From an uncultured Erysipelotrichaceae bacterium (lineage in GTDB: Bacteria; Bacillota_I; Bacilli_A; RFN20; CAG-826), in assembly GCA_900316365.1 (NCBI GenBank), contig ONCO01000001.1, positions 3,675 to 67,674 of the forward strand: DNA of 64,000 nt. Direction: 5' to 3'. Under the pieces are notes generated by a model. The model was given only the letters and a program-made list of their open reading frames with translations, searched no databases and had not been told where the DNA came from. A program made the translations under genes and the position numbers. Below are positions 6,750 to 36,015 of the stretch, piece by piece. Numbering within the stretch: position 1 is the stretch's first letter; every line of letters begins with the position of its first letter.

Positions 6750-6983
6750 ATGGCCGGAAAACAAATCGAACAAATCAAAAAATTATTCTGCGAAAGACTT
6801 GCTGTCGCCAATCTTGATGAGAACAAATCCCTCGAAGAACTTGGCTTGGACAGCTTAGACGTCGTCGATATGTGCTTAGACGTCGAAGATAAATTCGGCG
6901 TGCATTTCGAGACTGAGGAACTCGTGGCCTTCAAGACCGTGAAAGACCTCTTTGAGGCGATCGAAAAGAAACTCGGCGAATAA
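6750..6983 (+). CDS. acpP: Acyl carrier protein
   Basis: 77 aa, acidic, LGLDSLD phosphopantetheine site. Confidence 0.92.
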   Translation: MAGKQIEQIKKLFCERLAVANLDENKSLEELGLDSLDVVDMCLDVEDKFGVHFETEELVAFKTVKDLFEAIEKKLGE

Positions 6984-6995
6984 GAAATTGATACG

Positions 6996-7024
6996 AAAGA
7001 GGCGGCGTCGTACCGCCTCTTTTT
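6996..7024 (+). terminator. Intrinsic terminator after acpP
   Basis: AAAGAGGCGG-N7-CCGCCTCTTTTT. Confidence 0.8.
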
Positions 7025-7053
7025 GTTTCCTAAGATAATGCGTCATTTTTTTG

Positions 7054-7082
7054 TTGCAAAGGCGCTTTCATTACACTATTAT
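7054..7082 (+). promoter_or_regulatory. Sigma-A promoter of the tRNA pair
   Basis: TTGCAA-N17-TATTAT, 26 nt upstream of tRNA-Asn. Confidence 0.6.
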
Positions 7083-7108
7083 TTGTCATGCGCTTCAAAG
7101 CGCAACGC

Positions 7109-7183
7109 GCGCACTTAGCTCAGCGGTAGAGCAATCGGCTGTTAACCGATCGGTCGGAGGTTCGAACCCTCTAGTGCGCGCCA
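7109..7183 (+). tRNA. tRNA-Asn (GTT)
   Basis: GCGCACT/AGTGCGC acceptor stem, anticodon loop CT-GTT-AA, GTTCGAA T-loop, encoded CCA. Confidence 0.97.
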
Positions 7184-7185
7184 CT

Positions 7186-7262
7186 GGCCCGTTGGAGAAG
7201 CGGCTTAACTCACATGCCTTTCACGCATGCATTCACGCGTTCGAATCGCGTACGGGTCACCA
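7186..7262 (+). tRNA. tRNA-Glu (TTC)
   Basis: GGCCCGT/ACGGGTC stem, CATGC-CTTTCAC-GCATG anticodon arm, GTTCGAA, ACCA end. Confidence 0.97.
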
Positions 7263-7302
7263 ACTTAGTTAAATGGGATTGATACAATGTGTCAGTCCTT
7301 TT
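7260..7302 (+). repeat. Cassette-junction repeat, copy 1 (tRNA CCA + 12 nt + TGAT/TCAG hairpin; attL-like)
   Basis: CCA-ACTTAGTTAAAT-GGGATTGATACAATGTGTCAGTCCTTTT; closely matches 15001-15044. Confidence 0.7.
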
Positions 7303-7324
7303 ATTTTTTTGTTATCATGTGTAT

Positions 7325-7876
7325 ATGAAAAAAAGTATTAAAGCTTTGTTATATATTCAAATGATATTAGTCCTTGTTGGTCTGCTTACCCAACTTGGGT
7401 TATTTATCTTTGCCATTGCGAACAACTTAAACGCTCTAATGATTGTTAGCTATGGTGTTTTACTGTTGGCCCATGTCGGAGCGATAGTGTACGGCATTAT
7501 TGGATATAAGAGAGGCCCAATTAGATACATTCTTCTTGTATCATCATTCCTTTTAGCTATTTTGTTAAACATCATTTTGCCATTTAGAGATATTCCTCAA
7601 AGAATCTCGTTAGTGTTATTGTTCGGACTCATGTCTGTATTCATGCTCAAACAAGATGATTATAAGTTTACTAACTACTTGATTTTGGTTGCAGTAGTAG
7701 TGGCGTTATTCTTCTCTATTTATTCTTCAATCAATGCGAATCCTAACGCTTTAGGGGATGTTAAATATAAAGAATTAGCAACAGTGTTCATGTATTTATC
7801 CATCTTTGCCCCTGTGATGTTCGTTGGTTTCTTTGGCGTCTCTTATAACGCTAAAAAGAGCTTAAAAAGCTATTAA
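7325..7876 (+). CDS. Multi-pass membrane protein (AT-rich cassette)
   Basis: About 6 hydrophobic segments; visibly AT-richer than core genes. Confidence 0.8.
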   Translation: MKKSIKALLYIQMILVLVGLLTQLGLFIFAIANNLNALMIVSYGVLLLAHVGAIVYGIIGYKRGPIRYILLVSSFLLAILLNIILPFRDIPQRISLVLLFGLMSVFMLKQDDYKFTNYLILVAVVVALFFSIYSSINANPNALGDVKYKELATVFMYLSIFAPVMFVGFFGVSYNAKKSLKSY

Positions 7877-7906
7877 AGAAATAGCGTTCGGTCTGTGATT
7901 GTTGGT

Positions 7907-7983
7907 GTTCGGTTGTATCAAAACACTGAAACCCTGCCAGTTAGAGATTCAAAGCCTTGATATGAAATATCAGGGCTTTTTTT
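7907..7983 (+). repeat. Cassette-junction repeat, copy 2 (33-mer + hairpin)
   Basis: GTTCGGTTGTATCAAAACACTGAAACCCTGCCA, then AAAGCCTTGATA-TGAAA-TATCAGGGCTTT and a T-run. Confidence 0.7.
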
Positions 7984-8104
7984 GTGCATCGGTTCGATCG
8001 CTAGAGTTTGATCGCCTTTTTTTGCTATCATAAAGGCAACCAAGAAACATAGAAAAAACAAAAAGTCTTTACGCTTTTTCTTGATTTAGAGACAGGAGGT
8101 TTTT

Positions 8105-8959
8105 ATGGCAAGAGAAGATGACATCACAAATCGCGGAAGCGATACGCCGGCGAAGGTCGGCGCGATCATAAACACCGTGGCGGCGATTATCATTACTCCG
8201 GTTTATGGGATTGTGCTGGGGCAGCTTCCTCTGGGCATTGTTGTCCCTAAGTTCGTGGATGTGATCGTTGCGATTTTAGACGTTGCCGTTTTATTCGAGG
8301 CAATCATGGGGTGGATCATCTACAAACGCTGGATGAAGACTTCGGCTACCTGGCCGTATAAGTGGTTAAGGGTCATGGGCTTTATCCCGTTTGGCTTTAT
8401 CACTTACCTCATCGCCGCTAAAGAGTGGCTGATAGATTATCGTTTCTGCTATCAAGGCGGTAGAGAAGAGCTTGCCGCTAGAAATAAGGCTTTTCGAGCA
8501 AGGCAAGCCGCCGAAGAGGAAGAAAGAAAACGTAAAGAAGCCGCTTTTAGGGCGACTCCAGAAGGGCGGAGACTCACTGAGAAAGAAGATCAAATTAGGT
8601 ACTTCTCTGACTCTGTGAAATCCTTATGCGAAAACGGTTCTTGGAATTACAGTAAAGATGTGGCAACTTCGCCTGCAATTTTTGATTTAAGGTTTAAGGG
8701 CGTTGATTTGGATGAAAAATCCGGAACCATCTATATTTACTTCGAATCCGAAATCAACTTGTATATCCCAATTGATTCGGCGGGCTCTCGAGTTAAAGTT
8801 GAGTACGACTGCAGATCCTTCTGCAAAGGGCGAGCGACTAAATTCGCTTCACGCGTTCGCGAGGAGATTCTGCCAGAATACCAAAGAGGCTCGGTTGGGT
8901 ATTATTTCTCTCGGTTTCAAAAAGTGGAAAGCCTCATCAAATTCCGTGTCAAAAAATAG
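8105..8959 (+). CDS. Hypothetical membrane protein (about 3 TM + coiled coil + soluble domain)
   Basis: RBS AGGAGG; hydrophobic N-terminus, EEEERKRKE charged helix. Confidence 0.75.
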   Translation: MAREDDITNRGSDTPAKVGAIINTVAAIIITPVYGIVLGQLPLGIVVPKFVDVIVAILDVAVLFEAIMGWIIYKRWMKTSATWPYKWLRVMGFIPFGFITYLIAAKEWLIDYRFCYQGGREELAARNKAFRARQAAEEEERKRKEAAFRATPEGRRLTEKEDQIRYFSDSVKSLCENGSWNYSKDVATSPAIFDLRFKGVDLDEKSGTIYIYFESEINLYIPIDSAGSRVKVEYDCRSFCKGRATKFASRVREEILPEYQRGSVGYYFSRFQKVESLIKFRVKK

Positions 8960-9006
8960 CGGTTTTTCAGTAACACAATATAAAATTAATCGAAGGAGTC
9001 GTAGTT

Positions 9007-9948
9007 ATGGACTTTGAATTGGCTTACATCGCTGAACGCGATACAGATTTCGCTCTCATGAGAGAGGCGAGTCTATCAAAAGAGGTGCAGAACCTCTTCT
9101 TAAGAAAGGTCGGGGAATCAGGGACCTTGGTAAAAATAATCCATTCATTGACTCAAGAGGAAGAACCGGGAAAAGTCGGCGAGTCTGATGTTGTTTTAAT
9201 TTTTGAAAGACCAGATAAGAGCCGTTTTGCTATTTTCATTGAGGATAAAATTGCGGCAAGCGCCCAGCCAAGACAAAGAGAGAGGTATGAGCTAAGGGCG
9301 CCTAAATTAGAAACCGAATTGGGCTTAAAAGGCCATCATGTCGTTCTATTTGCCCCTAAAAAATACCTGGATAAAGAAACTTCTCAAGATTATAAATTAC
9401 AAATTTCCCACGAAAGCGTCGTTGATTTATGCGTCGATGAATTAGATAAAAAGGTCTTAAGCGACTCTTGCAAAGTAAAACAACACGGCAAAACACAAAT
9501 AGATTATCAAATCACCGATTTTTGGAACCATCTTATCGATTATATAGGCGATTATCATGTTGATTTGGCGTTTACAAAAGACAAGGTGGATAGGGGGCCA
9601 AACTCTTATTGGCCTGAATTCGGTACCAGTTTGAAGGGCGTTGCTGTTGTGTATAAATCGGACCAAAACGTTGTTGACCTCACGTTTAATAAAATGGCCA
9701 CGAAAAGAATCAACATCATTACGATATTCGAAACCATCGGTATTGATCCTGGAGATAGATATTTTACGGACGTCGGGGAGAGCTTGGCTTTAAGAAAGAA
9801 TCTGTTGGGCGATGCGAAAATCGACTTCAGAAAACCTTTCGATGCCCAAAAAGACAATGTGGACAAGGTTATCGACGAAGTCCGCAAGATGGTCGAGATG
9901 GCTAGAAAGATCGGAAATAGCAAATATTCGTCTATCTTTGCTCAATAA
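9007..9948 (+). CDS. PD-(D/E)XK nuclease family protein
   Basis: ERDTD, GESDVV..IFIEDKI..QPRQRERY motifs. Confidence 0.8.
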   Translation: MDFELAYIAERDTDFALMREASLSKEVQNLFLRKVGESGTLVKIIHSLTQEEEPGKVGESDVVLIFERPDKSRFAIFIEDKIAASAQPRQRERYELRAPKLETELGLKGHHVVLFAPKKYLDKETSQDYKLQISHESVVDLCVDELDKKVLSDSCKVKQHGKTQIDYQITDFWNHLIDYIGDYHVDLAFTKDKVDRGPNSYWPEFGTSLKGVAVVYKSDQNVVDLTFNKMATKRINIITIFETIGIDPGDRYFTDVGESLALRKNLLGDAKIDFRKPFDAQKDNVDKVIDEVRKMVEMARKIGNSKYSSIFAQ

Positions 9949-9973
9949 CTTCTTTCAGTTGGCACTATGAGGC

Positions 9974-10048
9974 GTTCGACCGCATCAAAACGTTGTAAGC
10001 CGGCCAACAGACAAAAACAGGGTTGATGCGATTACGTCTGCCCTTTTT
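9974..10048 (+). repeat. Cassette-junction repeat, copy 3
   Basis: GTTCGACCGCATCAAAACGTTGTAAGCCGGCCA (24/33 identical to copy 2, no gaps), then AGGGTTGATG..CGTCTGCCCT hairpin and a T-run. Confidence 0.7.
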
Positions 10049-10090
10049 ATAGCCAAAAAGGTTTTGTATAATCCACTTTGAGGTATTTTC

Positions 10091-11107
10091 ATGAAAAGGA
10101 TTGCGAAGTTTTTCTTTTTTCCAATGATGGCGATCGGCCTTGCTGGCTGCGGTTTCCTTGGCGAGATGTTCGGTGGAGACACCGACAACATCCATAAGCA
10201 GTCATACGAACCGATCACCGGCAAATTCGTTTTGCATGACGCCACAGACAAGAGATTAGAGAATCCTGACGCCTATTTCGAATTCGATGGCAGCAAGGGC
10301 AATTTCTCCATGAAATACTACGAAAACGGCGTCCTCAAAAGAGAAGGCCAATTCAACCGCGTAGTCACCTACGAGAACTACATCGGTAAGATCAAAGACA
10401 ATCTGCATTTCAACATCAAGATCGGAGATGCCACCGAGCATATCGGCACTTACACAGAGTCCTTAGACCCGATCGACCAATTTAGGATTCTAGAGGAATA
10501 CACCGGCGCAGAAACGAAGTTCTATTACTCTGAGCTCCCGTATATCATCGGAACATACGTGAGGGAGGGGAAAGAATATAAGCAAGAGTCCAAGACTGAT
10601 GCGGAGACGGATTATTCGATCCCAACCGTTGAGAATTTCACCTGCCTCCTTAATGGCAAATACGCTTTAGACGAAGATACGTATTTCTATTTCATCTACC
10701 CATATAAGAATGATTATTACGCGAAGGCGTACTTCCAATACTTTTCCCCGGACTTAGAGAAGCCTCTTGAAGGCTTTGTGGCTGGCAGAACCTATACTAA
10801 CATCGGCAGCAATACCGAAATGATATTCACCTATTCCCGCCAGGTATCGATGTATAAGGCCGGTGGCAAAACGGACGAAGGTGGAATGTATTTCGGCTAT
10901 TACTCCATCGGTAGCGATGACCGTCTAAAAGAGCATTGGGGCACCGTGGATTATCAAGACGGAGTCCTCAATTCCTTCTCCTTTGAGCATCTATCGAGAA
11001 CCTGGACGGATGAGGAAATGGATAAGTGGACCAAGGACCTCGACTATAGGCTCCCAGACCCAATATATTACGAATACGTCGGAGGGACTTACTCCAAAGC
11101 CCAATGA
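10091..11107 (+). CDS. Lipoprotein of unknown function
   Basis: LAGC lipobox; Tyr-rich beta-type sequence. Confidence 0.8.
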   Translation: MKRIAKFFFFPMMAIGLAGCGFLGEMFGGDTDNIHKQSYEPITGKFVLHDATDKRLENPDAYFEFDGSKGNFSMKYYENGVLKREGQFNRVVTYENYIGKIKDNLHFNIKIGDATEHIGTYTESLDPIDQFRILEEYTGAETKFYYSELPYIIGTYVREGKEYKQESKTDAETDYSIPTVENFTCLLNGKYALDEDTYFYFIYPYKNDYYAKAYFQYFSPDLEKPLEGFVAGRTYTNIGSNTEMIFTYSRQVSMYKAGGKTDEGGMYFGYYSIGSDDRLKEHWGTVDYQDGVLNSFSFEHLSRTWTDEEMDKWTKDLDYRLPDPIYYEYVGGTYSKAQ

Positions 11108-11385
11108 GTGATTCGGGCCCCGTGATCGCGGCGGCGAGCATCCAAGCAACCACCAAAAGCATTCAGACGAATATAAACTTAGCGACCCTTCCTCCGGGCT
11201 TTATGTCACCTCTTTTGAAGTGCGGGAAACAGTCGACGCAGCGGCTTGGAACTTTTATTTCAGCGCATTCGGATTCACGGTCAGTTACAGAGCGATCGCA
11301 TAAAAAGAGCTTCTTTGATAGCAAGTGCCATGAGCTTCTATCATTTTGTGTTCAAAAATCTTAATTACTGTTGTTTAATAAAGAT

Positions 11386-12948
11386 ATGAAAAAAGGAATA
11401 ATTTGTGGCGCTTTGCTGCTTTCTCTTTTGACGTCCTGCAACGTCGTTTCTTTGAACTCCGATTCAGGGGAAAGTAAAAGCGGTAATCTATCCGTAGGCA
11501 CTTCCACTTCGAAATCGCAGGGAGGCGAACTCCCGGTTTTCGAGGTTTTCGATGTTTTCGGCGACAGAGACAACGGACGCAGGGCGGATGAGTTTAAGCT
11601 TGAAGAATTCGGTGATTCGCCCTTTAAACTCGAATCGAATGGCGAATTAACGAACGGAACATACCGCGCGGACGTTTCCCACGCCCAGAGCCTATTCGTC
11701 AAAGACGTCAATAATGACGGGTACCGTGATTTCTGCATGGTCAGTTCCTCGGGCAGCGGCATTGTTTATTTCTTCGTCGAGATATACGACTTGCATAATC
11801 GCGAAAAAATATTCACTTTGTCTGAAAGGCAATGTTTCTCTTATTTCTTGTCTATCGATGATGGCGACCTCGCTATAAGGCGAGTCAAACAGTACTACGA
11901 TGACGAAGAATACGGGAGAGGCGTTTTCCGCTTCGATAAATCTAGAGGCGTCTATGTAGAATGGGAGAATAAGTATCACGTCAACGACTTTAGCTTTTCC
12001 ATTGCTTCGGTGGATCCTAATCACACCCCTTTGCGTTTGGAAGAAGAGCGGGGCGTCTATAACGCCATCGCAGATGCTTCTTCGACTTATTTCATCAGCA
12101 TCGACATCGATGCCCAGGATGCGTCGTTGTTGCCGGATTATCCGATTGTTTCCGTGAATATGGGCACTACCCCTTTCACGTGGTGGCGAAACGGTTCCAA
12201 AAGCAATTCCACTCATTACGAAGGGTTTTTCTTCTTCTCGGGCGATGATCAGCTTTACACGGTCGATATAAACGTTTCCGGAATAGAAAAAATGATTGTT
12301 TTCGGGATCAGCGATATCGGGACCGAACCAACCAAGATCAAAGACCTTTATCCTTGGGCTAGGAATGTCACGACAGACACGCTGTCTTCGTTTAGATACG
12401 ATGTGGTCGGTGGGGCTCGCGGTTTTCGGACGATTTATCGCTCTTCAAGCAAAAACACTATCTCTCTCGCGGTCCGAAACCTAAATCTAATCGCCTATGA
12501 GTGCGACCCGAGCTTTTTCGTTAATATCGAACGCCTTTCTACAGCGAACGGCGATCGTTCTTATTATTACGTTGTTGATGGTGTTGAAAATGTGATTAAA
12601 ACCATTTCGAGTGTGTTGATCGTTGGGGAGAAATACTACTTTATAAGGGAGTCAATGCTATTCGGTTCGGCCGAAGAGATTAGATACGGCTTCGATGAGA
12701 GAACCCTCTCTATAACGATGAAAGCGGCGGCCGATGGTTTCTTTGACAAGATCGTTACCGACCTCGGAGATTTCGAATTTGCCGAAAAGACCAGCGATCA
12801 TCGTTACACCAAAGAAAACGCCAAATACAGTTTCGTGGCTGGTTCCACAGAATACTACGTAATTTCCCCTAAGGTCTTTATCTCATCCGATCTTAGATAC
12901 GAATATGAAATAACAACCGCCAGGGACTTCTCGGAACTGTTTGAATAG
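11386..12948 (+). CDS. Lipoprotein of unknown function
   Basis: LTSC lipobox, Ser-rich linker, Ca-binding-like DVNNDGYRD. Confidence 0.8.
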   Translation: MKKGIICGALLLSLLTSCNVVSLNSDSGESKSGNLSVGTSTSKSQGGELPVFEVFDVFGDRDNGRRADEFKLEEFGDSPFKLESNGELTNGTYRADVSHAQSLFVKDVNNDGYRDFCMVSSSGSGIVYFFVEIYDLHNREKIFTLSERQCFSYFLSIDDGDLAIRRVKQYYDDEEYGRGVFRFDKSRGVYVEWENKYHVNDFSFSIASVDPNHTPLRLEEERGVYNAIADASSTYFISIDIDAQDASLLPDYPIVSVNMGTTPFTWWRNGSKSNSTHYEGFFFFSGDDQLYTVDINVSGIEKMIVFGISDIGTEPTKIKDLYPWARNVTTDTLSSFRYDVVGGARGFRTIYRSSSKNTISLAVRNLNLIAYECDPSFFVNIERLSTANGDRSYYYVVDGVENVIKTISSVLIVGEKYYFIRESMLFGSAEEIRYGFDERTLSITMKAAADGFFDKIVTDLGDFEFAEKTSDHRYTKENAKYSFVAGSTEYYVISPKVFISSDLRYEYEITTARDFSELFE

Positions 12949-12963
12949 TCTTCGCTTAGGCGT

Positions 12964-13422
12964 TTAAGCCACGACGCTGTAAGGGATTAGTTTCAGGATG
13001 ATGTGATCGCTAAAATCACCGACTTGGTATTTTAAGGTCAGATCCTCTATTTCCGTGTCTTTTGGATATTCGAAACTGATGTTGTATATCGGATTCGCTT
13101 TCGAGGCTTCTTCGTCAAATGTAATCGTCCAATAATCCGATGCGGAGAACGTGGCGACGTTGCCACTGAAAACCACCTGTTTCGATCCACGCCACACAGG
13201 CCTGATTTCCAAGGAATAAATCCTGGAATTCATCACCTCGTAACGGGGGTAACTCTTGCCGTCCTTCTCTTTGATGCGTTCGATTGGAGTGACGACTTGC
13301 GGTTCTCCGTCCCCGTTAAGATAAAGAGTGTGGGTTACGCCGATGATTTCTGGTGTCCCGGATCCGCAGCCAGTAAGGGCGAGCATCATTAGCGGAAGCG
13401 GCAATAGTCTGTTTAATCTCAT
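12964..13422 (-). CDS. Small lipoprotein
   Basis: LTGC lipobox; RBS AAGGAG. Confidence 0.75.
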   Translation of the reverse strand: MRLNRLLPLPLMMLALTGCGSGTPEIIGVTHTLYLNGDGEPQVVTPIERIKEKDGKSYPRYEVMNSRIYSLEIRPVWRGSKQVVFSGNVATFSASDYWTITFDEEASKANPIYNISFEYPKDTEIEDLTLKYQVGDFSDHIILKLIPYSVVA

Positions 13423-13639
13423 GGGCGGTTCTCCTTTGGCGGACAGGTGCCGAAATCGACTTTATGGGGATAAAATCGATGTTAAGCGGCCCCATAAAAA
13501 GGGCCAGCACAATAATATCCGAATACTTTTGAAAAATAAGACTTGTGTTTATTTATCTAAAGTGGATTATATTAGCAATTTCATCACTCAATCAATCTCA
13601 AATTGATGCGATTCATTTTATCCACAGGAGGAAGTAGAG

Positions 13640-14920
13640 ATGAAAAGAAGCAAATCAATCATCATTCCATTAACTATAGCTTCCTTCGCCTTAAGTGGCT
13701 GTTTTGTTGATAACCGCTTAGCCCCCGGAACAAGCAGTCCCGACGTTTCTATGAGCAGCGAGCCTAGCGACGTAAAAACCATCAGCGGGCGCATCGGGGC
13801 CGATTATGGCTCGCTCGAAGAAGGCGAGGCTACGTTTCTTTTCGGCGATGTGCGCCTGCCGTTTTCTCCTGAATATGTTGGCGTGGATTATGCGGCCGTT
13901 GGGGATTTCGTCGAAATTAGCTACAAAGGTGAATGGACGGCCTCCAAGAAGCATCCAGATTATTATGATTGGGATAAAGCCACGATAGTGGGCGTAAAAG
14001 TCACCCATTGCCATATCGCCGAATTCGAGATTGCCGCCGTTCCGGGTGGTGGCAAAAGCCTTAGGGCACTAGACGCTTCCGTTTCTGTTGGCGAATTATC
14101 GACTACTAATTGCATATATCGCGACAGGACGTTCGAAGAATGGGAATCCTACCCTGCCGGGACGAAGATATATGGCACCTGCTCGGCCAAAGAAAAATCG
14201 GCAAAAGTTTTCGCCCTCTATTCCTATGATCCTAGTGAGCGCAGGGAAAGCCTGACTTTGAAAGAAAGTTATGGTTGGATCGGGAGGTTGAAGGAAGAGG
14301 ACATTGCTATGGTCATCTCTGGTTATCGCCATGGGTCTATTTGCCCGACTTTCGAAACGCTGGATTATTACACTTATAGCTATGAACCATCGGAGATTCA
14401 GAGAACTTATGAATACCTAAGCACGGCGAGGATCGTGTTCGATGATCCCGAAATGTTGATGGGCGGGGGTTTGTGGGAGCTGATCGTGGTAACAAAGACG
14501 GGAGAGAAACACTACGTCTCCGTGAGCGAGGGCAGGCCGGTTGCTATTTTCGACGGCAGATTTGTTTCATTCGACACCGCGCTTCCAATGTTCTCGAATC
14601 TATATGGAAATGGCTTCCTCTGGCAGTCCCTTCTGGACATGAAGGTGAGTAATGCCGACGGGACTATCGATTACACCGATTCCTTCCCTCGTCTCGAGAG
14701 TTTTGAAGACATGATTTTCCAGGAGATCGAGAACCCTTCTTTCTCTGGCGAGCCTAACGAATACAACGCCTACAAATTCTCTTGTGATTGTGGCGAGATA
14801 GTCTTCGAGTCCAATACGGCTTTCATGGTCAATACGTTGGAAGGCAAGACCCATTACTATAGAGTCGTTAATGAGGTCACCTTCGAATACCTAAGGGGTG
14901 GACCGCAAAGAACCATTTAA
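13640..14920 (+). CDS. Lipoprotein of unknown function
   Basis: LSGC lipobox; RBS AGGAGG. Confidence 0.8.
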   Translation: MKRSKSIIIPLTIASFALSGCFVDNRLAPGTSSPDVSMSSEPSDVKTISGRIGADYGSLEEGEATFLFGDVRLPFSPEYVGVDYAAVGDFVEISYKGEWTASKKHPDYYDWDKATIVGVKVTHCHIAEFEIAAVPGGGKSLRALDASVSVGELSTTNCIYRDRTFEEWESYPAGTKIYGTCSAKEKSAKVFALYSYDPSERRESLTLKESYGWIGRLKEEDIAMVISGYRHGSICPTFETLDYYTYSYEPSEIQRTYEYLSTARIVFDDPEMLMGGGLWELIVVTKTGEKHYVSVSEGRPVAIFDGRFVSFDTALPMFSNLYGNGFLWQSLLDMKVSNADGTIDYTDSFPRLESFEDMIFQEIENPSFSGEPNEYNAYKFSCDCGEIVFESNTAFMVNTLEGKTHYYRVVNEVTFEYLRGGPQRTI

Positions 14921-14984
14921 CGGTTTATCAAAGTTAAAAGGGCTCTCTAAATCCTGATGGGGTTGGTTGAAAAACAACCCAGAC

Positions 14985-15044
14985 AAACGCTGAAACCCCG
15001 CTAACTTGGGAGCATAGGATTGATATGGTGTGTCAGTCCTTTTA
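14985..15044 (+). repeat. Cassette-junction repeat, copy 4
   Basis: AAACGCTGAAACCCCGCTA (16/19 to the end of copy 2) + ACTTGGGAGCAT + AGGATTGATATGGTGTGTCAGTCCTTTT (near-identical to the copy 1 hairpin). Confidence 0.7.
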
Positions 15045-15066
15045 GACGCGGGGTTTTCCTACACTT

Positions 15067-15360
15067 AGAGCCGAGGAAGTGATCCCTCTCCTATAAATAA
15101 TCCGTTTCAAGGGTAATATACCTTCTTGGATTCCCGGAGAGAGGCCATGGCCTCGGCTTTCCTTTTGTAGGCATGCAAAGGGAATGGCGGATCAGCGCGC
15201 GGGGTTTTTGAGCGTAAGCTCGGCATGAAAAATGCGCGGTCCGCGCCTTTGGAGAAGCGCGCTTAACCCTAATGCGAAACGAACTCGTTATCGCGCGTAT
15301 ATCTTTGGAAAAAGCGTCGCCAAAAGGACTAACGCGGATCCCGGGAAGGATCCGAATGCC
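15067..15360 (+). ncRNA. Putative IS110 bridge RNA
   Basis: Stem-loops at 15069-15158, 15159-15184, 15187-15244, 15246-15327; 15198-15208 CGCGGGGTTTT is identical to the left flank 15047-15057. Confidence 0.65.
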
Positions 15361-15379
15361 GGAAAGGAAGGTCTATGAG

Positions 15380-16585
15380 ATGATAGACAGCGAAGCGCCC
15401 GTGCTGGCGTTCGACGTCTCGAAGGGATGCAGCCATTGCCAGGGCTTCGTTTCCTTCGGGGAGCCGCTTGGCAGGCCGATCAAGGTGGCGCATACGAAAA
15501 GCGGGATGGCGCCCGCGGAGGAAATCTCCAGATTGCTAGAGGAAAGGTCGGGCAGAAAGCCGAAGGCCGTCCTGGAGTCCACCGGGGTTTATTCCAAGCC
15601 CGTCATAAGATGGGCGGAATCGCTGGGGCTGGATGTCTACCTAATATCGCCTTTGGAGTCGGCGAAGGTCAGGAAAAGCAGGGTCAGGCCGACGAAGACG
15701 GATGCCCTGGACTGCGGAGTGATAGCGGAGGTCGCCTACACCAGAAGCCTGAGGAGGGCCACGCCAAAATCCTCCCTTTATTCCCAGCTGTATTCGCTCT
15801 CGCGAAGGAGGGCCGCAATCGCGGACAGGCTGGTCGCGTCAAAGAACCAATACAGGAAAAGCCTCGACTGCGTCTGGCCTTTATTGGATGAGGCGTGCGA
15901 CCCGTTCTCCGGATACGCGATGTGGGCGGTCGGGAAATACAGGCATCCCGAGAGGCTCGCGAAGGCGAAGGCGGAATCGCTCGCCAAGGCGATGGGCGGG
16001 GCCAAAATCAGATTAGGCAGTATCTCGAAGCAAGCCGTGGCGTCAAAGCTGATCGCCTACGCGAAGGGCGCCCTGAGCGGATGCTCGCCGAACGACGGCG
16101 AAGTCGATGCCCTCATGTCCGCCATGTCGGACGTCGAACGGGACATGGAGGCGCTGGGCGGGGCGACCGAAGAGCTGATCGCCTTGGCCAAGGAGCTCCC
16201 CCATTTCGCCCAGATCCTGTCCATCGACGGGATAGGCGAGCCGCTCGCCGCGTTGCTTTGCGCGGAGATAGGGGAGCCGTCGAGGTTCTCGTGCCGGAAC
16301 GGCTTGGTAGCGTACGCGGGGCTGGACCCGACGATCCTCCAGTCGGGCAGGAACGACGGCCTCCATTATTCCATCACCCGGAAGGGGAACGCGTTCCTGA
16401 GGAGATGCCTATACCTGGCCGTGGAGAACATGGGGATGCACAAAGCGTCCAACGCGATAACCGAATTCTACTCGAAAAAGAAAAGCAGCGGCCTTTGCCA
16501 CAAGGCGGCTGCGACGGCGGCCTGCAGGAAGCTCCTGGTATGCATCTGGGGAATGCTTCGCAGCGGGACGTTCTTCGATAGATAG
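15380..16585 (+). CDS. IS110 family transposase/recombinase
   Basis: DEDD residues (FDVSK, LESTG, KTDALD), SIDGIG, AYAGLDP..QSG serine, RKL motif; RBS AAGGAAGG before ATG 15380. Confidence 0.95.
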   Translation: MIDSEAPVLAFDVSKGCSHCQGFVSFGEPLGRPIKVAHTKSGMAPAEEISRLLEERSGRKPKAVLESTGVYSKPVIRWAESLGLDVYLISPLESAKVRKSRVRPTKTDALDCGVIAEVAYTRSLRRATPKSSLYSQLYSLSRRRAAIADRLVASKNQYRKSLDCVWPLLDEACDPFSGYAMWAVGKYRHPERLAKAKAESLAKAMGGAKIRLGSISKQAVASKLIAYAKGALSGCSPNDGEVDALMSAMSDVERDMEALGGATEELIALAKELPHFAQILSIDGIGEPLAALLCAEIGEPSRFSCRNGLVAYAGLDPTILQSGRNDGLHYSITRKGNAFLRRCLYLAVENMGMHKASNAITEFYSKKKSSGLCHKAAATAACRKLLVCIWGMLRSGTFFDR

Positions 16586-16701
16586 TGTAGCAAAAAGCCA
16601 ATGTTTTAAAAGACATTTTAAATGATGCCTCTTTTTCGATGCGCCCGAAAAGAGAAGGCGCAAAAAGAGAGAACACCGTTGACAAGACTTATCCTATTTT
16701 C

Positions 16702-16928
16702 TTCAGACTCCTGATTCTCTTCATCGGCACCAAATTATTCGATATGACCCTCTTCGATTTCTACTTATTGTGCTACTCGATTTTCTTCCCGCATTATTTC
16801 CCGGAATGCAAAGAATTGGTGGGGCAAGGCAATTGGGCTTTAACCTCAAATCGCAGCTGATTAAACTGCTCATCTATACCGCCGTAACTTTTGGCTTAGC
16901 CGCCTTAGCGGTTTTGGTTAAATGGTAA
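16702..16928 (+). pseudogene. Possible remnant of a membrane-protein gene truncated at the IS end
   Basis: Hydrophobic fragments FRLLILFIGTKLF... and LIYTAVTFGLAALAVLVKW* without an intact start. Confidence 0.35.
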
Positions 16929-17128
16929 GCAATAACCATAAGCTGGATATATAGCCTTCTTTAAGCGCAAATCGAGGGGCTGACGTAAACGTCAGTCATT
17001 TTTCATTTTATTAATACGCCTAATTAACCTAAGGCGATTTAAAACCACATTTTTGGGGGTTATAATCATAAAAAATTGAAATTACGCAAGAACGCGTCAA
17101 GGCTTTTTTGCCATTTAGGGAGTTCGCG

Positions 17129-20100
17129 ATGAAAAAGAGAATTGGTTTGATTGCTTCATTTTTGATGTTGGGTTCGCTCCTATTGTCGGGGTGCAGTTTC
17201 CTTTTCCCGTCGAATACAGGTTCTAAAGAGACGAATTCCAACACCAATAACACTTTGACTGATTTCGATTTCGTCACCGATGAAAGGATGACCATCGAAG
17301 ACTCTGACTCCGAACATCCATTCAAACTCCTAACCTTCTTCGTCGGCGACACCTATCAGGTTAAGACCAACGTCGATAGCAAACTCGGCGATGATTACCA
17401 CTTCGAATATAGTGGTTTCGACGAGAACATCATCTCCGTTTCTTCCTCCGGCTTAGTCAGTGCGAATGCCAAAGGCGTAGATTCCGTTACCGTCTCTTTG
17501 CATAAGAACGGCAGTGCCAAGAGGGTTGCGAGCAAATACTTCATCGTCGATGTTTTAGATCCGGAACAGGCCTATGCAAGAATCACCCTCAACGACTCTA
17601 GCCTCAGATACGAAGCAAGCGGCAGGAATTATTTCTTAACCGTCAATGGCGGCGATTCCTACCAGATCCGAACCGAGGTTAACTTTAATACCCCATATAT
17701 CAAAACCTTCGAGCTCGCCGATCAGGCCTTCTCTTCCTTCATGAGCGTTTCCTCTGCTGGTTTAGTTATCACCAAGAGAGTTAGCGAAGAAAAAGACGGC
17801 AAAATCGTCATCAAGACCTTGAGTCAGGATGCTTCTAGGGTCTATGACACCGTCTACCTCAATATCCATATCAACAAGGGCAGCGAGCGCCCACCAGAAA
17901 ACACCTTTGAGGTCACTAACCTCTCTAGCGGAGCCAAACTTAGTGATGGCGATTCCTTATCGATGTATGTCGGCGAATCCTTGTCTTTCGGAGCCAAATA
18001 CAATAACGGCAACGTCACCAATGTGATCACCGCCTCCAACACCGATGTCCTTACCGTTGATGGCGAGAATAACAAGATCACCGGTAAAGCCGCTGGTAAT
18101 AGCGACGTCACCTTCGCCCATCAGGGCAAATCCTTAACCGTCCATGTTGAGGTTAAGAATGATGTGCTTTTGGAGATCTACACCAAAAACGGCGCTGATG
18201 ATTTAGTCATCGTTAATGACACGCTCCATTTCTTAGGCAAGGTATACGCCAAATACCAGAGTGGAACGGAAGTGGATATCAGCGGTGAAACAAGCCTCAC
18301 CAAAAACATTGCCGCACTCGATGCCACCCATAAGCGCGTGACCCTTGGCTATAGCGCGAATGGTGTCAGCAAAACCGTTAACTATGATGTCCTCTTCTTT
18401 GTCACCGAAGATTATCAAGGAGATACAACCGCCTATACCTGGACCGATTATTTCAACAATAAATACAGGAATAGGGCCTATATCCTCCCAAACGAAGGAA
18501 CCATCAAGATGCTCGTCATCCCTGTTTGGTTTAACAACTCGACTTCCTTCTTCAGAGAAGACCAGAAGCAAGAGATTCTCACCGACCTTGAATATGTCTT
18601 TAACACCACGAGAGGCGAAGATGGTTTCCATTCCGTTAAGCAGTTCTACGAAGAGGAATCCAATGGCTTATTAAACCTCGATATCACCATCAGCGATTTC
18701 TATGAATCAGGCACCTCTAGCAAAGTCTATGGCGATACCGTCGAAGCGGACGTCCAACGCGTCCGTTCTTTGACCGACACCGCCATCGACTGGTACTTCA
18801 ATAACCATTCTGGCGAATCTAGAAGCGACTATGACCTTAATAACGACGGCTATATCGACGCTGTCTCCTTAGCCTATGCCGCGAACTATTACGGCACGAT
18901 CGGCGATTCTAACGGCACCGTTGCTTTCGAGTATACGAACGTCGATGGCGCCGCCCATAAATACAACAACGGCTCCTTCACCCCGATCGGTTCCATATAT
19001 GGTTTCAGCAAGAGCGCCGATCCTTCTGGGCAACTTGCTTGCAGTGACCTTTCCGCCTACTATCCAAGCTATTTTTTCGAAACCGGCTCCAGAACTTTCA
19101 TCCACGAGACCGGCCATATGTTCGGCTTCATCGACTTATACGAAGATAACCACGCGGTCACGAAGTATTACCCAGCGGGTAAATTCACCATGCAGGCCTA
19201 CAACTTCGGTGGTCACGACCCATATCAGATGAATGTCATCGGCTGGAGCAAACCTCAGATCTACGATGCTTCCAATTACGAAGTCGGTTATTCGACCAAA
19301 GTCCATATCAAAGACTTCGCCAGCAGTGGCAACAACATCCTCCTTACCAGAGACATGAATGAGGCGAATTCCTTATTCGACGAATACATGCTCCTTGAGC
19401 TTCTCGCCCCAACTGGCCTTAACGCCTATGACGCGAAGCATTCTTCCTATGTCTTCGATGACGCCGGCGTTAGACTCTGGCACATCAATTCCATTTTGGA
19501 GGATCTGTCCGAGAACGGCGAGGCGACCAACGAAATCGTCTCCACCAAATACGTCAATCTCAAGTATTCCAACTATGACCAGTCCAGCGAATGTGACGTC
19601 GTCCACTGGATCAGAAACAACGAGAATGAGGCCTATGACACCACCTCCAGCGTCAAAGACGAATATGGCTTATTCATGGCCGGCGACCATTTCGATATGG
19701 CCACCTTCCAGTCTCAGTTCGTCAATGGCGATAAGCTCGATAACAAAGAGAAACTCGGCTGGGAATTCGACGTCGATACCATCTATCAGGACGTCGATGG
19801 CACCTATGGTGCGATCATCACCCTCAATAGGGTCGACAACACCAGAACCGATTTCGAATATAGCTCTAGAATCGATAAAGACGTCACCACTCAGCCAACC
19901 GGCAATGACTACGAACTCGCAAACGTCTTATTGACTGACACCGACAGCTTCTCGCTTAAGTACAGCTTCAATAACGCGACCCCGCCAAGTTATTACGTCC
20001 AGGAAAAGCCTGTCTCCTATAAGGGTGTTTGCTTATTCGCTTCTCCAGACGGGAGTGGTGGCTCCCTCATTATCTCCATGCCTCCGGTTTTGGGATTGAA

Positions 20101-20362
20101 TCAGAGCATCAAGTCGGTCTCGATCACTTACTCCATGCTGACCAACGCCTCCTTGACTGCGACCGTTAATGGGGCAGAGGTGACTGGTACTTACTTTGAA
20201 GGACCTTTCAACTCTTACGATAACTACAACGAGAAAGGTATGAAGTACGAGGTCAACGGAAACTCCATTACCCTGCAGAATAAGTATTCTGAGAACATTA
20301 ACCATTTCTCCGTCATCGCCATCTATAGCATCGCCATCGAATACCATATGGAGCAGATGTGA
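17129..20362 (+). CDS. M6 (immune inhibitor A-like) metalloprotease lipoprotein with Ig-like domains
   Basis: LSGC lipobox, Big_2-like repeats, MLVIPVWF, YDLNNDGYID, HETGHMFGFIDLY zinc motif. Confidence 0.88.
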   Translation: MKKRIGLIASFLMLGSLLLSGCSFLFPSNTGSKETNSNTNNTLTDFDFVTDERMTIEDSDSEHPFKLLTFFVGDTYQVKTNVDSKLGDDYHFEYSGFDENIISVSSSGLVSANAKGVDSVTVSLHKNGSAKRVASKYFIVDVLDPEQAYARITLNDSSLRYEASGRNYFLTVNGGDSYQIRTEVNFNTPYIKTFELADQAFSSFMSVSSAGLVITKRVSEEKDGKIVIKTLSQDASRVYDTVYLNIHINKGSERPPENTFEVTNLSSGAKLSDGDSLSMYVGESLSFGAKYNNGNVTNVITASNTDVLTVDGENNKITGKAAGNSDVTFAHQGKSLTVHVEVKNDVLLEIYTKNGADDLVIVNDTLHFLGKVYAKYQSGTEVDISGETSLTKNIAALDATHKRVTLGYSANGVSKTVNYDVLFFVTEDYQGDTTAYTWTDYFNNKYRNRAYILPNEGTIKMLVIPVWFNNSTSFFREDQKQEILTDLEYVFNTTRGEDGFHSVKQFYEEESNGLLNLDITISDFYESGTSSKVYGDTVEADVQRVRSLTDTAIDWYFNNHSGESRSDYDLNNDGYIDAVSLAYAANYYGTIGDSNGTVAFEYTNVDGAAHKYNNGSFTPIGSIYGFSKSADPSGQLACSDLSAYYPSYFFETGSRTFIHETGHMFGFIDLYEDNHAVTKYYPAGKFTMQAYNFGGHDPYQMNVIGWSKPQIYDASNYEVGYSTKVHIKDFASSGNNILLTRDMNEANSLFDEYMLLELLAPTGLNAYDAKHSSYVFDDAGVRLWHINSILEDLSENGEATNEIVSTKYVNLKYSNYDQSSECDVVHWIRNNENEAYDTTSSVKDEYGLFMAGDHFDMATFQSQFVNGDKLDNKEKLGWEFDVDTIYQDVDGTYGAIITLNRVDNTRTDFEYSSRIDKDVTTQPTGNDYELANVLLTDTDSFSLKYSFNNATPPSYYVQEKPVSYKGVCLFASPDGSGGSLIISMPPVLGLNQSIKSVSITYSMLTNASLTATVNGAEVTGTYFEGPFNSYDNYNEKGMKYEVNGNSITLQNKYSENINHFSVIAIYSIAIEYHMEQM

Positions 20363-20569
20363 TATGAATATCGAAGCCCATCCTGAAGAAGGAGTGGGCC
20401 TCGAAATAGCAAAAACTAATTAAAAATATATATTTTTACCTTTGGTCGAATTGTTTAGACATAATCGCGTTTTTTGGCTACATATTTATGTCTATAAACT
20501 AGGTTTATCACCCTAAAGTTCTAGGAAAAGCGATAGTTTGAAAGTAGAATGCTCTCAGAGAAAACGACC

Positions 20570-21724
20570 ATGAAGAAAAATCTGCTTTTATTCGCGCCGA
20601 TTGTTGTAATAGCAATTTCCTCCTGCACACTTGCCAGGAATGAGAGTAGTGGTGAATCCAAGTCCATCGAGACTCCTGCTAGCAGCTCTTATAGCGCGCC
20701 TGCGAATGAATATTATTTAGACAAAACAACTCTTGGGCTTAAGCTTGGTCAAAAGAAAGAGCTTCATGTTTGGAGGGAAGGATACAAAAATAGCGTCTAC
20801 GGTTCCAATTGGCGCAGCGCTGACCCATCTATCGTCACCGTTAACGCCGGTGGCGAGGTTATCGGCGTTGGCGTAGGCGAAACGATGGTTTATGTCGACG
20901 CAGGAGGAGAAACCCTGAAGTGCAAAGTCACCGTTACCGAAGGGGATTATTCCTTAAGCGAGAACGAACTCATCGTGGTGGAGGGCGAAACCATTGAAGT
21001 TCCTGTCGTTTATCTCGATCAGAAACCTGTTGCCTTTACCGTGACTTGGGCGTCCTCGGATCCTAGTATCGCCAGAGTAAGCGGTAATAGCATCTCCGGC
21101 GTCAAAGAAGGCGCGGCCTATATCGGGGCCACTATCGGCAGCAAGAATTTACGCGCCAGAGTAACCGTTCTTTCCAAAGCGAAGGCTCTATTCATCCTTC
21201 AGGGTGGCTCTTTAAGCAGCCAAGACGATAGCCTTTATGGCTTCTCTGGCACCAAAACATATAGCAGCGAAACCTTCGAAACCGTTACTGCCACCTCGAA
21301 TAGCTATAGCTGGTTCTTTTATTACGATATAGGCGAAGATGTCTTCAACATTGAGAATGCCTGGGAGTTCGATTATCAGGGACAACATAAGAGATGCGTT
21401 TCTAGCATCACTTTCTCCTGGGGTAACTATAGGAACGCCTTATTCCAGTCGACTTGTTACCCAAGCTATTCCGCCTCCGCCGACTATAACAACAAGATGA
21501 AGGTTAGATTTAACCCATCTTGTATGACTTTTAACGTCGCTACCCAGGCCGTCACCGTCGATGAGTCTTATACCTACACCGCCTTGCATAACGATTTCCA
21601 GCAGATGGATAGCTATGACTTTGCCTTCATGTGGCATGCGGTGGAGAAGGCCAATGAATTCGCGGCCAATTGCCTTGCCACTAATAGCAAGATCTCCTCT
21701 TACGGATTAAAGCTCTTCCAATAA
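20570..21724 (+). CDS. Lipoprotein with two Big_2 Ig-like domains
   Basis: ISSC lipobox; WRSADPSIVTV and WASSDPSIARV repeats. Confidence 0.85.
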   Translation: MKKNLLLFAPIVVIAISSCTLARNESSGESKSIETPASSSYSAPANEYYLDKTTLGLKLGQKKELHVWREGYKNSVYGSNWRSADPSIVTVNAGGEVIGVGVGETMVYVDAGGETLKCKVTVTEGDYSLSENELIVVEGETIEVPVVYLDQKPVAFTVTWASSDPSIARVSGNSISGVKEGAAYIGATIGSKNLRARVTVLSKAKALFILQGGSLSSQDDSLYGFSGTKTYSSETFETVTATSNSYSWFFYYDIGEDVFNIENAWEFDYQGQHKRCVSSITFSWGNYRNALFQSTCYPSYSASADYNNKMKVRFNPSCMTFNVATQAVTVDESYTYTALHNDFQQMDSYDFAFMWHAVEKANEFAANCLATNSKISSYGLKLFQ

Positions 21725-24567: not shown

Positions 24568-25209
24568 ATGAAACAATATCCAAACGTTACAGTTCTCGAA
24601 CACCCACTCATTACTCACAAGATCTCCATTCTTCGTGATAAGAACACTCCGACCAGCGAATTCCGTCAGCTTGTTAAGGAAATCGCCATCATGGAGGGCT
24701 ATGAGGCTCTTCGCAACGTCCCAACCAAGGACGTCGAAATCGAGACTCCTATCGAAAAGACCACCGTTAAGATGGTTCGCGGCAGCAAGCTTTGCTTCGT
24801 CCCGATCCTCCGTGCCGGCATGGGCATGGTCGATGGTTTGACCGAGCTTATCCCAACCGCCCGCGTCGGCCATATCGGCCTTTACCGCGATGAGGTCACC
24901 CATGAGCCGCATGAATATTATTGCAAGCTCCCGAACGACCTCGAAAACCTTGAGATCTACGTCATCGACCCGATGCTCGCCACCGGCGGCTCCGCGATCG
25001 ACGCCATCCGTCTCTTGAAGGAACATGGTGCGAAAAACCTCCATTTCATCTGCATCATCGCCGCCCCAGAGGGCATCAAAGCCTTCTGCGAGGCCAATCC
25101 CGACATTCCTCTCACCGTTGGCGCGCTTGACCGTCAGCTCAACGAGAACGCCTACATCTGCCCAGGCTTGGGTGATGCCGGCGATCGAATCTTCGGAACT
25201 GTCAAATAA
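24568..25209 (+). CDS. upp: Uracil phosphoribosyltransferase
   Basis: [38 protein letters not shown]. Confidence 0.97.
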
Positions 25210-25230
25210 GCTACCATCTAGCGAAATTAG

Positions 25231-25267
25231 GAGGGCTAACCCGCAAGGGAAGCCCTCTTTTTTCTTT
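25231..25267 (+). terminator. Terminator after upp
   Basis: GAGGGCT..AGCCCTC + T-run. Confidence 0.8.
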
Positions 25268-35941: not shown

Positions 35942-36015
35942 AGGGGCTTGGTTCAGTGGTAGAACAGAGGTCTCCAAAACCTTTGATGAGGGTTCGATTC
36001 CTTCAGCCCCTGCCA
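35942..36015 (+). tRNA. tRNA-Trp (CCA)
   Basis: AGGGGCT/AGCCCCT stem, CT-CCA-AA loop, GTTCGA, GCCA end. Confidence 0.97.

Follow-up and report, generated by a model that had tools for sequence, protein, structure and literature searches.

A tandem array of small gene cassettes behind a tRNA-Glu gene of an uncultured Erysipelotrichaceae bacterium, probably built by recombination of the large serine recombinase type

Structure of the tRNA-Glu locus

The window analyzed here is a stretch of 64,000 nucleotides from contig ONCO01000001.1 of an uncultured Erysipelotrichaceae bacterium (assembly GCA_900316365.1, designated G000; 35 contigs, 1.47 Mb, 93.7% complete). Our subject is its region 7263–15044, an array of three gene cassettes that follows a pair of tRNA genes and is punctuated by four related junctions (Table 1). 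The tRNA-Glu(ttc) gene was called by ARAGORN with a 3' end of CCA and its last letter at 7262, as it had been placed by an earlier, sequence-only reading of this DNA; Rfam at gathering score gave nothing beyond three tRNAs. The 7.8 kb behind tRNA-Glu have a G+C content of 0.40–0.46 vs. approximately 0.47 upstream, and all their open reading frames (ORFs) except one lie on the plus strand. The three units are 0.7, 2.1, and 5.0 kb long. Judged by the comparisons given below, this region is probably a tandem stack of three segments built by site-specific recombination of the large serine recombinase (LSR) type at the CCA end of tRNA-Glu.

Table 1. Features of the array and its flanks (positions in the window)
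Feature	Position	Strand	Description
tRNA-Asn(gtt)	7109–7183	+	first of the anchoring tRNA pair; ARAGORN and Rfam
tRNA-Glu(ttc)	7186–7262	+	3' end is the chromosomal (B-type) left arm of junction 1; ARAGORN and Rfam
Junction 1, right (P') arm	7263–7311	+	12-nt spacer, hairpin 7275–7299 with GATTGATACAA, T-run
Cassette A cargo	7325–7876	+	183-aa membrane-protein-like ORF
Junction 2, left (P) arm	7883–7939	+	about 57 nt, GTTCGG repeat and TTGTATCAAAAC, ends with GCCA
Junction 2, P' arm	7940–7986	+	diverged; spacer, hairpin 7951–7979 with TTGATAT, T-run
Cassette B, ORF 1	8105–8959	+	284 aa, membrane-protein-like
Cassette B, ORF 2	9007–9948	+	313 aa, PD-(D/E)XK-nuclease-like
Junction 3	9974–10050	+	P arm 9974–10006 (ends with GCCA); diverged P' arm 10007–10050 (TTGATG hairpin, T-run)
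Cassette C, ORFs	10091–14920	mixed	10091–11107 (+), 11104–11364 (+), 11371–12948 (+), 12964–13422 (-), 13640–14920 (+)
Junction 4	14985–15044	+	worn P arm 14985–15003 (ends with GCTA); near-canonical P' arm 15004–15044
IS110-family insertion sequence	15055–16700	+	transposase 15272–16585, Pfam PF01548 and PF02371; not part of the array mechanism

Junctions 2–4 join a left (P) arm to a right (P') arm, and at junction 1 the left arm is the tRNA end; tRNA-Glu with the P' arm of junction 1 is an attL-type site. All four junctions were found where the sequence-only reading had put them, and its identity counts held when measured again. Between the left arms of copies 2 (7907–7939) and 3 (9974–10006), 24 of 33 positions are identical, as are 16 of 19 between the left arms of copies 4 and 2 and 32 of 41 between the right arms of copies 4 (15004–15044) and 1 (7263–7303). 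The latter two arms were also paired by a repeat search as a 42-nt repeat (79%). Ungapped 33-mer pairs with at least 24 identities occurred twice in 6900–15400 and in none of five block shuffles. The left arm had been described as a 33-mer; it is present but longer, with about 57 conserved nt including a GTTCG/GTTCC motif repeated 22–24 nt apart, TTGTAT(C/T)AA inside, and GCCA at the end. Terminator-like hairpins followed by T-runs were called at 7275–7299 and 7951–7979, and the hairpins of copies 3 and 4 were read by eye.

An nhmmer profile was built from 22 complete junctions, none of them from G000, and searched without filtering over all 35 contigs. Exactly four matches with E < 1e-4 were obtained, all on the plus strand: junction 1 (7259–7309, E 2.9e-12), junction 4 (14985–15043, E 1.6e-7), junction 3 (9982–10050, E 4.8e-6), and junction 2 (7907–7984, E 2.3e-5). 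The fifth-best match had an E-value of 0.8. A dispersed terminator, which the sequence-only reading had named as a finding that would refute it, is ruled out, since a profile built from outside finds only these four sites in the assembly. In comparison with junction 1 (3e-12), junctions 2, 3, and 4 are worn (2e-5 to 2e-7).

Cargo of the cassettes

Cassette C contains four ORFs with lipoprotein-type N-termini (by-eye reading) and one ORF of 86 aa. For the eight cassette ORFs, no family above the curated cut-off was found in Pfam, NCBIfam, or PADLOC. Atlas look-alikes of the 313-aa protein of cassette B carry PDDEXK_4 (score 0.98), and the protein itself gave a weak PADLOC match to PDC-S26 (E 4.4e-5, residues 23–95); it did not turn up in any of 200 further genomes from the order. 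The cargo of 7263–15060 had no DNA match in 57 other species of the genus, whereas the sites matched in ten of them (the right arm in nine, the left arm of junction 2 in one). The junctions delimit unrelated cargo, as had been supposed, and this cargo is unique to the species while the sites alone match elsewhere.

A consensus scan of 7279–7327 revealed two promoter-like pairs. The first is TTGATA (in the hairpin) and TATTTT with a 17-nt spacing; the second is GTGTCA and TATCAT, 18 nt apart, with a TG. The P' arm may therefore carry an outward promoter as well. The ATG of cassette A (7325) is approximately 7 nt past the second -10 element and has no visible ribosome-binding site, and the message may be leaderless.

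The site family in other genomes of the order

The sequence-only reading had proposed a search of this and related genomes with a profile of the junction, and the sites proved to belong to a family. When 200 further genomes from the order were searched, 46 had matches, in many cases with two to five copies on one strand, 1–12 kb apart (G191, G125, G094, G102, G108, G063, G074, G142). The same spacer and hairpin have two kinds of left neighbor, either the CCA end of a tRNA or the conserved arm. Among the 52 distinct profile-matched junctions in other genomes, 17 are directly behind tRNAs called by ARAGORN and represent 11 anticodon types (Glu-ttc, Glu-ctc, His, Leu-tag, Leu-gag, Val, Ala, Trp, Gln, Thr, and Gly). 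In 14 of these cases, 14 nt separate the tRNA end from GATTGATAC, and in the other three, 13 nt. About 24 junctions are behind P arms, one further row is a locus-edge artefact, and ten fall under "other", among them diverged P arms and two tRNA ends missed by ARAGORN.

The P' arm of junction 1, and with it the 50 nt past tRNA-Glu, recurs with 86–96% identity in other genera, behind tRNAs and elsewhere. One family of the order has identical right arms and identical downstream DNA behind different tRNAs. The Asn-Glu tRNA pair also anchors an array in G191, in which the tRNA-Asn/Glu genes and a P' arm are followed by three P.P' junctions. On the left side, positions 7873–7945 of the window are 92% identical to G238:C30:596–667, there behind an unrelated gene.

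Loci L059 (G018, ~2440–2480), L044 (G125), and L047 (G102) share a promoter-like sequence past the P' arm, consisting of TTGACC, a 19-nt spacer with the palindrome TAGAGTTAACTCTA, and TACAAT. This spacing is MerR-like, and in G125 a MerR-like ORF lies behind the promoter-like sequence.

Anatomy of the site

TTGTATCAA, the outer motif of the P arm, returns in reverse complement as the outer motif of the P' arm, TTGATACAA, and there makes up the 5' arm and the loop of the hairpin. Measured from TTGTATC to GATACAA, the dyad covers 52 nt, with the midpoint on the non-palindromic CA of the CCA, and approximately 20 of the 22 aligned junctions have no gap between the motif and the CCA. An imperfect dyad of about 40–50 bp around a non-palindromic central dinucleotide, by which attachment sites of this kind are recognized, is found in the junctions. 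Crossover would take place at the CA of the CCA, at 7261–7262 in the window. By its layout, the site is unlike attC, from which the junction profile also differs as a sequence family, and it has the geometry of the attP of a large serine recombinase.

The arms of the tRNA and of the mobile partner can also be compared. P arms have in common with the tRNA the CCA and a shifted T-loop-like motif, and nothing more. In the P arms, TTGTATC is located 21–27 nt from the 3' A, and the tRNA T-loop TCGAATC is located 16–22 nt from the 3' end, i.e., 5 nt nearer the CA. According to Rutherford et al. (PMC3783163), the zinc-ribbon motif of serine integrases covers 9 bp at positions 16–24 of the attP half-site and is shifted 5 bp inward in attB. 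The offset between the T-loop and the P motif is exactly 5 nt, with five of seven letters shared and no B' half-site defined; its match to the attB/attP rule is suggestive, not proof. The native right half of attB (B') was not recovered from the array ends of G191 and G102, which differ and give no common B'.

The base of the hairpin stem covaries between families (GGATTGA..TCAGTCC vs. AGATTGA..TCAGTCT, with a closing pair G-C vs. A-T), and the P' hairpin probably also terminates transcription. These features could point to an element acting at the RNA level, that is, a terminator or processing signal behind tRNAs and CCA-tailed transcripts that was spread by ordinary duplication. Besides the terminator-like hairpin with its T-run and the compensatory changes in the stem base, the G.T pairs, which favor folding of the plus-strand transcript, fit such an element. 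However, the loop and the 5' arm (TTGATACAA) are conserved in sequence and mirror the P arm about the CA, the genome has four copies only and all of them in one array, identical P' arms with their downstream DNA follow different tRNAs, and in phage contigs and prophages the site adjoins LSR genes. Over the whole junction, the 22-junction alignment gave no consensus structure in RNAalifold, a weak point on the same side, because the 3' arm is poorly aligned owing to shifting loop lengths and the result is uninformative. Altogether, we regard an RNA-level origin of the repeats as very unlikely.

The hairpin is also an imperfect palindrome, and G000 has two Phage_integrase-family genes of ~300 aa (PF00589; contigs C12 and C24), the only ones of this class in the genome. 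These points would suit an array built by the Xer-type tyrosine recombinases of the host, in the manner of integrative mobile elements exploiting Xer (IMEX) or pdif modules. But both genes are on other contigs and have counterparts with near-identical scores in all four other genomes searched, as would be the case for housekeeping Xer genes. Moreover, the site is a 52-nt dyad about CA instead of the 11-6-11 layout of dif, and the site family travels with LSR genes. Hence, host Xer activity as the origin of the array seems highly improbable.

Direct repeats outside the 52-nt core were read from L050, L051, L037, and the left arms of other junctions. In the family of the window, GTTCC/GTTCG occurs twice (22–24 nt apart) just outside the core, and in another family of the order, GCGTGCA is repeated three to four times at an 11-nt period. 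Both may be accessory binding sites. The GCGTGCA family also has a T-arm-like sequence, GAGTTCGACTC, approximately 45 nt past the CCA.

Association of the site with large serine recombinases

The exact 21-nt hairpin core had no matches in viral contigs. A search of these contigs with a degenerate two-arm pattern gave 53 loci, six of which fit the profile at E < 1e-3 and 47 of which do not. LSR genes are present in five of the six. In four of these loci, a tandem pair of LSR genes (435–437 and 527 aa) ends 0.3–0.4 kb from the site; the pairs are transcribed towards P' and lie behind tail-, holin-, and lysis-like ORFs. Two contigs were scanned for domains (L076 and L113), and in both of them each protein of the pair had Resolvase, Recombinase, and Zn_ribbon_recom.

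A 25-mer of the phage P' arm was sought in 185,579 species genomes and occurred in three records: Ruminococcus sp. CAG:403, a Ruminococcaceae metagenome-assembled genome, and an uncultured bacterium. In all three, the phage P' arm directly follows the CCA of tRNA-Met, or in one record a 3' part of tRNA-Met, and LSR genes are located approximately 0.3 kb further on the opposite strand. The same arm is thus joined to a P arm in the phage and to a tRNA end in bacteria, as is expected of attP and attL.

Within the order, G191 has an LSR gene past the last junction of its array, in a phage-like layout. In G102, a tandem LSR pair ends a prophage-like stretch that abuts two junctions, and a prophage-sized unit with tandem LSR genes fills one slot of the array; the left end of this prophage is beyond its contig. 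The search for recombinase genes near the site, suggested by the sequence-only reading, was in this way successful: LSR genes adjoin the site in phage contigs, in G191, and in the tRNA-Met records. A gene with Resolvase, Recombinase, and zinc-ribbon domains beside the site was found in relatives and not in G000.

A second kind of 52-nt site (TTGTATCAAT...ATTGATACAA) was seen on both strands of the viral loci L066, L069, L086, L088, L091, L102, and L106, and may be a sister site family. In the stretches examined, LSR matches were strong in L066, L088, L091, and L102, weak in L086, and absent from L069 and L106.

Exchange of units and age of the array

Units bounded by the junctions are shared between genomes. 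A unit with a MerR-like gene and a hydrolase gene (1.6–2.6 kb) is common to G191 (family f1) and G125 (family f3); the copies are 83–89% identical from junction to junction and show no homology outside, and inside the unit, G191 has additional genes amounting to ~1 kb. G238 and G094 have in common an acetyltransferase-like unit together with its P arm.

Within the species of G000, no such movement was visible. Cassettes A, B, and C are covered by contigs in each of four independent gut metagenome runs (four studies, cattle and sheep); stretches without cover were left uninterpreted, and the metagenome contigs break at junctions. The array in this species looks old and fixed. Two expectations of the sequence-only reading were disappointed here. 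Strains did not differ at the level of cassettes among the four runs, and the joint leading back from 7936 to 7260, which might have indicated a circular form, corresponds with its sides of ~32 nt to P.P' junctions of other organisms. For this reason, the 7936-to-7260 joint and the inserted-letter joints were rejected as circles of cassette A.

These observations can also be read as a fossil stack: tRNA-Glu would have taken up full-size LSR phages or elements in tandem, internal deletions would have reduced them to a few cargo genes and the ends, and nothing would be mobilized in trans. This explanation has the same reading of the att sites and differs solely on origin and dynamics. It would account for the divergence of junctions 2, 3, and 4 relative to junction 1, the array covered in contigs of all four runs, the lack of an LSR gene in G000, and the prophage-sized unit with tandem LSRs in one array slot of G102. 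On the other hand, small units with intact, conserved ends recur, and G000 and G238 share the 57-nt P arm at 92% identity next to unrelated genes. The 1.6–2.6 kb unit is homologous from junction to junction in two families, the acetyltransferase-like unit is common to two genomes, and decay alone would not preserve both ends so well. We consider the fossil stack unlikely.

Proposed assembly of the array

In the mechanism that we favor, assembly by LSR-type recombination at the tRNA end, a mobile unit would carry an attP made up of a P arm (~57 nt with the GTTCG/GTTCC repeats, TTGTATCAA, and GCCA) and a P' arm (a 14-nt spacer, the hairpin with TTGATACAA, and the T-run). Integration would join the tRNA end to P', and further units entering the occupied site would leave P.P' junctions between them. 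Transcription would stop at the P' hairpin, which may thereby insulate each unit. For the recombinase, the T-loop of the tRNA (TCGAATC) is probably the attB-type equivalent of TTGTATC, and this would account for the variety of tRNAs used.

Several findings weigh against this mechanism. The assembly of G000, at its completeness of 93.7%, gave no match to the Resolvase and Recombinase domains (PF00239 and PF07508), and the case for such an enzyme comes from elsewhere. LSR genes are not enriched in site-bearing genomes (21 of 46 vs. 74 of 154 others), and among the bacterial loci examined (73 loci, 378 kb), they were near sites in G191 and G102 alone. At E < 1, the profile detected no terminal P|B' junction past copy 4 in G000. 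The T-loop and P motifs differ in two of their seven letters. Gain or loss of cassettes was not seen among the contigs of the four runs. In G005, a species of the same genus, a homolog of the cassette A gene (38–50% identity in tblastx pieces) lies behind tRNA-Glu at a locus with no site and a plain terminator behind the tRNA. Finally, recombination of attP with attL is not among the reactions of canonical serine integrases (PMC3783163), and P.P' stacking would need a permissive enzyme or some other route.

The sequence-only reading had described the locus as a platform at which non-autonomous cassettes are captured one after another by an enzyme acting in trans. The recombination-site nature of the junctions, the joining to the tRNA end, and the lack of a matching recombinase in the genome have stood; one-by-one capture in trans is still a hypothesis, and the units may instead be what remains of larger elements with a recombinase.

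The neighboring IS110-family element and other flanking genes

The sequence-only reading had reported no integrase. This is right for the array, which has no serine or tyrosine recombinase; however, an IS110-family transposase gene is present just beyond the range covered by that reading and starts 228 nt past copy 4. IS110-family elements are site-specific, and the neighborhood raises the question of whether this element made or moves the repeats. In three of the four runs, contigs join 15054/15058 to 16697/16701 and skip 1642 nt; the element is present in the remaining run, and contigs of every run cover the array. Contigs without the element and yet with the array contradict any dependence of the repeats on it, and other copies of the element adjoin unrelated hairpins. 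A role of IS110 is scarcely credible; the element is a recent, unrelated, polymorphic insertion beside junction 4. Its ends were set against four partial copies, located at contig ends of G000 (C20:1–785, C31:155323–end, C7:15–944, and C14:12397–13326; 77–81% identical). The left flanks seen in G000 were in all three cases hairpin-like and then TTTTCC.

Past the insertion sequence, 17108–20362 encodes a lipoprotein-like ORF of 1084 aa with an M6-metalloprotease-type domain below the cut-off (TIGR03296, E 6e-20, 72 bits vs. 110.8) and a weak Big_2 match. This ORF and a 391-aa ORF (20549–21724) gave only short, chance-level tblastx pieces against the compared locus of G005. In the same genome (G005:C24, L052+L053, joint coordinates 25159–25236), a lone complete P.P' junction is found 5 kb past tRNA-Trp, which itself has a plain terminator directly behind it. 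The tRNA-Trp of the window (35942–36015) has no such site behind it.

Comparison with known systems

The closest systems are the composite islands of the staphylococcal cassette chromosome (SCC) and the ssrA islands of Dehalococcoides; integrons are alike in form only. SCC composite islands at rlmH are moved by the large serine recombinases CcrAB/CcrC and have internal att boundaries. SCC (PMC13739063) and the array have in common tandem cassettes at one chromosomal site with internal att boundaries, some att-bounded units without recombinase genes, two recombinase genes often in tandem, and the assumption that the newest unit is nearest to the anchor gene. The SCC anchor is rlmH, whereas here it is the exact CCA end, with at least 11 anticodon types used across genomes; the comparison concerns layout. 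The units of the array are as small as 0.7 kb, and a terminator hairpin is part of the right arm. SCC elements are recognized by integration at the 3' end of rlmH by Ccr recombinases; the array has tRNA-Glu as its anchor instead.

In the ssrA islands of Dehalococcoides (DsiB, CcrB-like), serine-recombinase units are likewise stacked behind a small stable-RNA gene. Further points in common are an integration module on the reverse strand beside attL and units without the module, which are thought to be cis-mobilizable in some cases (PMC3146451). They differ from the present array, in which no duplication of the tRNA extends beyond the CCA and the crossover would be at the terminal CA.

Integron arrays, including clusters of attC sites lacking integron-integrases (CALINs), consist of small unrelated cassettes in the same orientation, separated by a recurring imperfect palindrome, and some of them have no integrase. 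They resemble the array in the conserved sites, the variable cargo, and the occurrence of integrase-less forms. In contrast to integrons, there is no IntI tyrosine recombinase here, the anchor is a tRNA gene and not attI, the site is a duplex-type dyad of 52 nt with accessory repeats and not a folded attC, and at least some cassettes may have their own promoters. An IntI-type tyrosine recombinase, as would accompany attI and Pc, was not found beside the array: the PF00589 genes are on C12 and C24, and none is in the studied region of the window.

Serine recombinases also act at tRNA genes in phiRSM1 (tRNA-Ser) and in the actinomycete integrative and conjugative elements (AICEs) of Mycobacterium (tRNA-Leu). 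These are single elements at one tRNA, and the portion of PMC3218068 at hand reports no arrays, multi-tRNA use, or exact CCA junction. Islander-type islands with tyrosine integrases share the tRNA anchor and tandem arrays (PMC4383910). They carry a gene-restoring tRNA fragment that marks the far end as well as a tyrosine integrase, and the array has neither; a Pfam domain scan of 7263–17000 found no tyrosine integrase.

Significance of the array

A broader interpretation can be offered tentatively, and we hold it to be possible but rather doubtful. A clade of tandem LSRs from phages of gut and rumen Bacillota may read the T-loop and CCA as attB and drive an integron-like exchange. By recombination in trans, small, self-contained cassettes, with a left end of ~57 nt and a right end consisting of a terminator and perhaps a promoter, would be excised, circularized, and inserted anew behind any tRNA.

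For the insertion of large DNA, serine integrases are the principal tools, and their natural targets are usually single protein-coding genes. The use of tRNA genes by serine integrases is described as rare (PMC3218068) or, in 2014, as not known (PMC4383910). A family centered on the CCA, and perhaps reading the T-loop, would have dozens of targets per genome. Our literature search, with supplements outside its scope, found no description of serine-recombinase cassette arrays at the CCA ends of tRNAs. Island finders built on tyrosine integrases and duplicated tRNA fragments would probably miss such small arrays.

If the broader interpretation is true, tRNA genes are open platforms for gene capture across a whole bacterial order. 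A site family centered on the CCA would account for a class of variable loci that has been hidden in bacteria of the gut and rumen and would provide, besides integrons, a second and mechanistically different example of cassette arrays. In the genome studied here, the array explains 7.8 kb of species-specific surface and nuclease-like genes.

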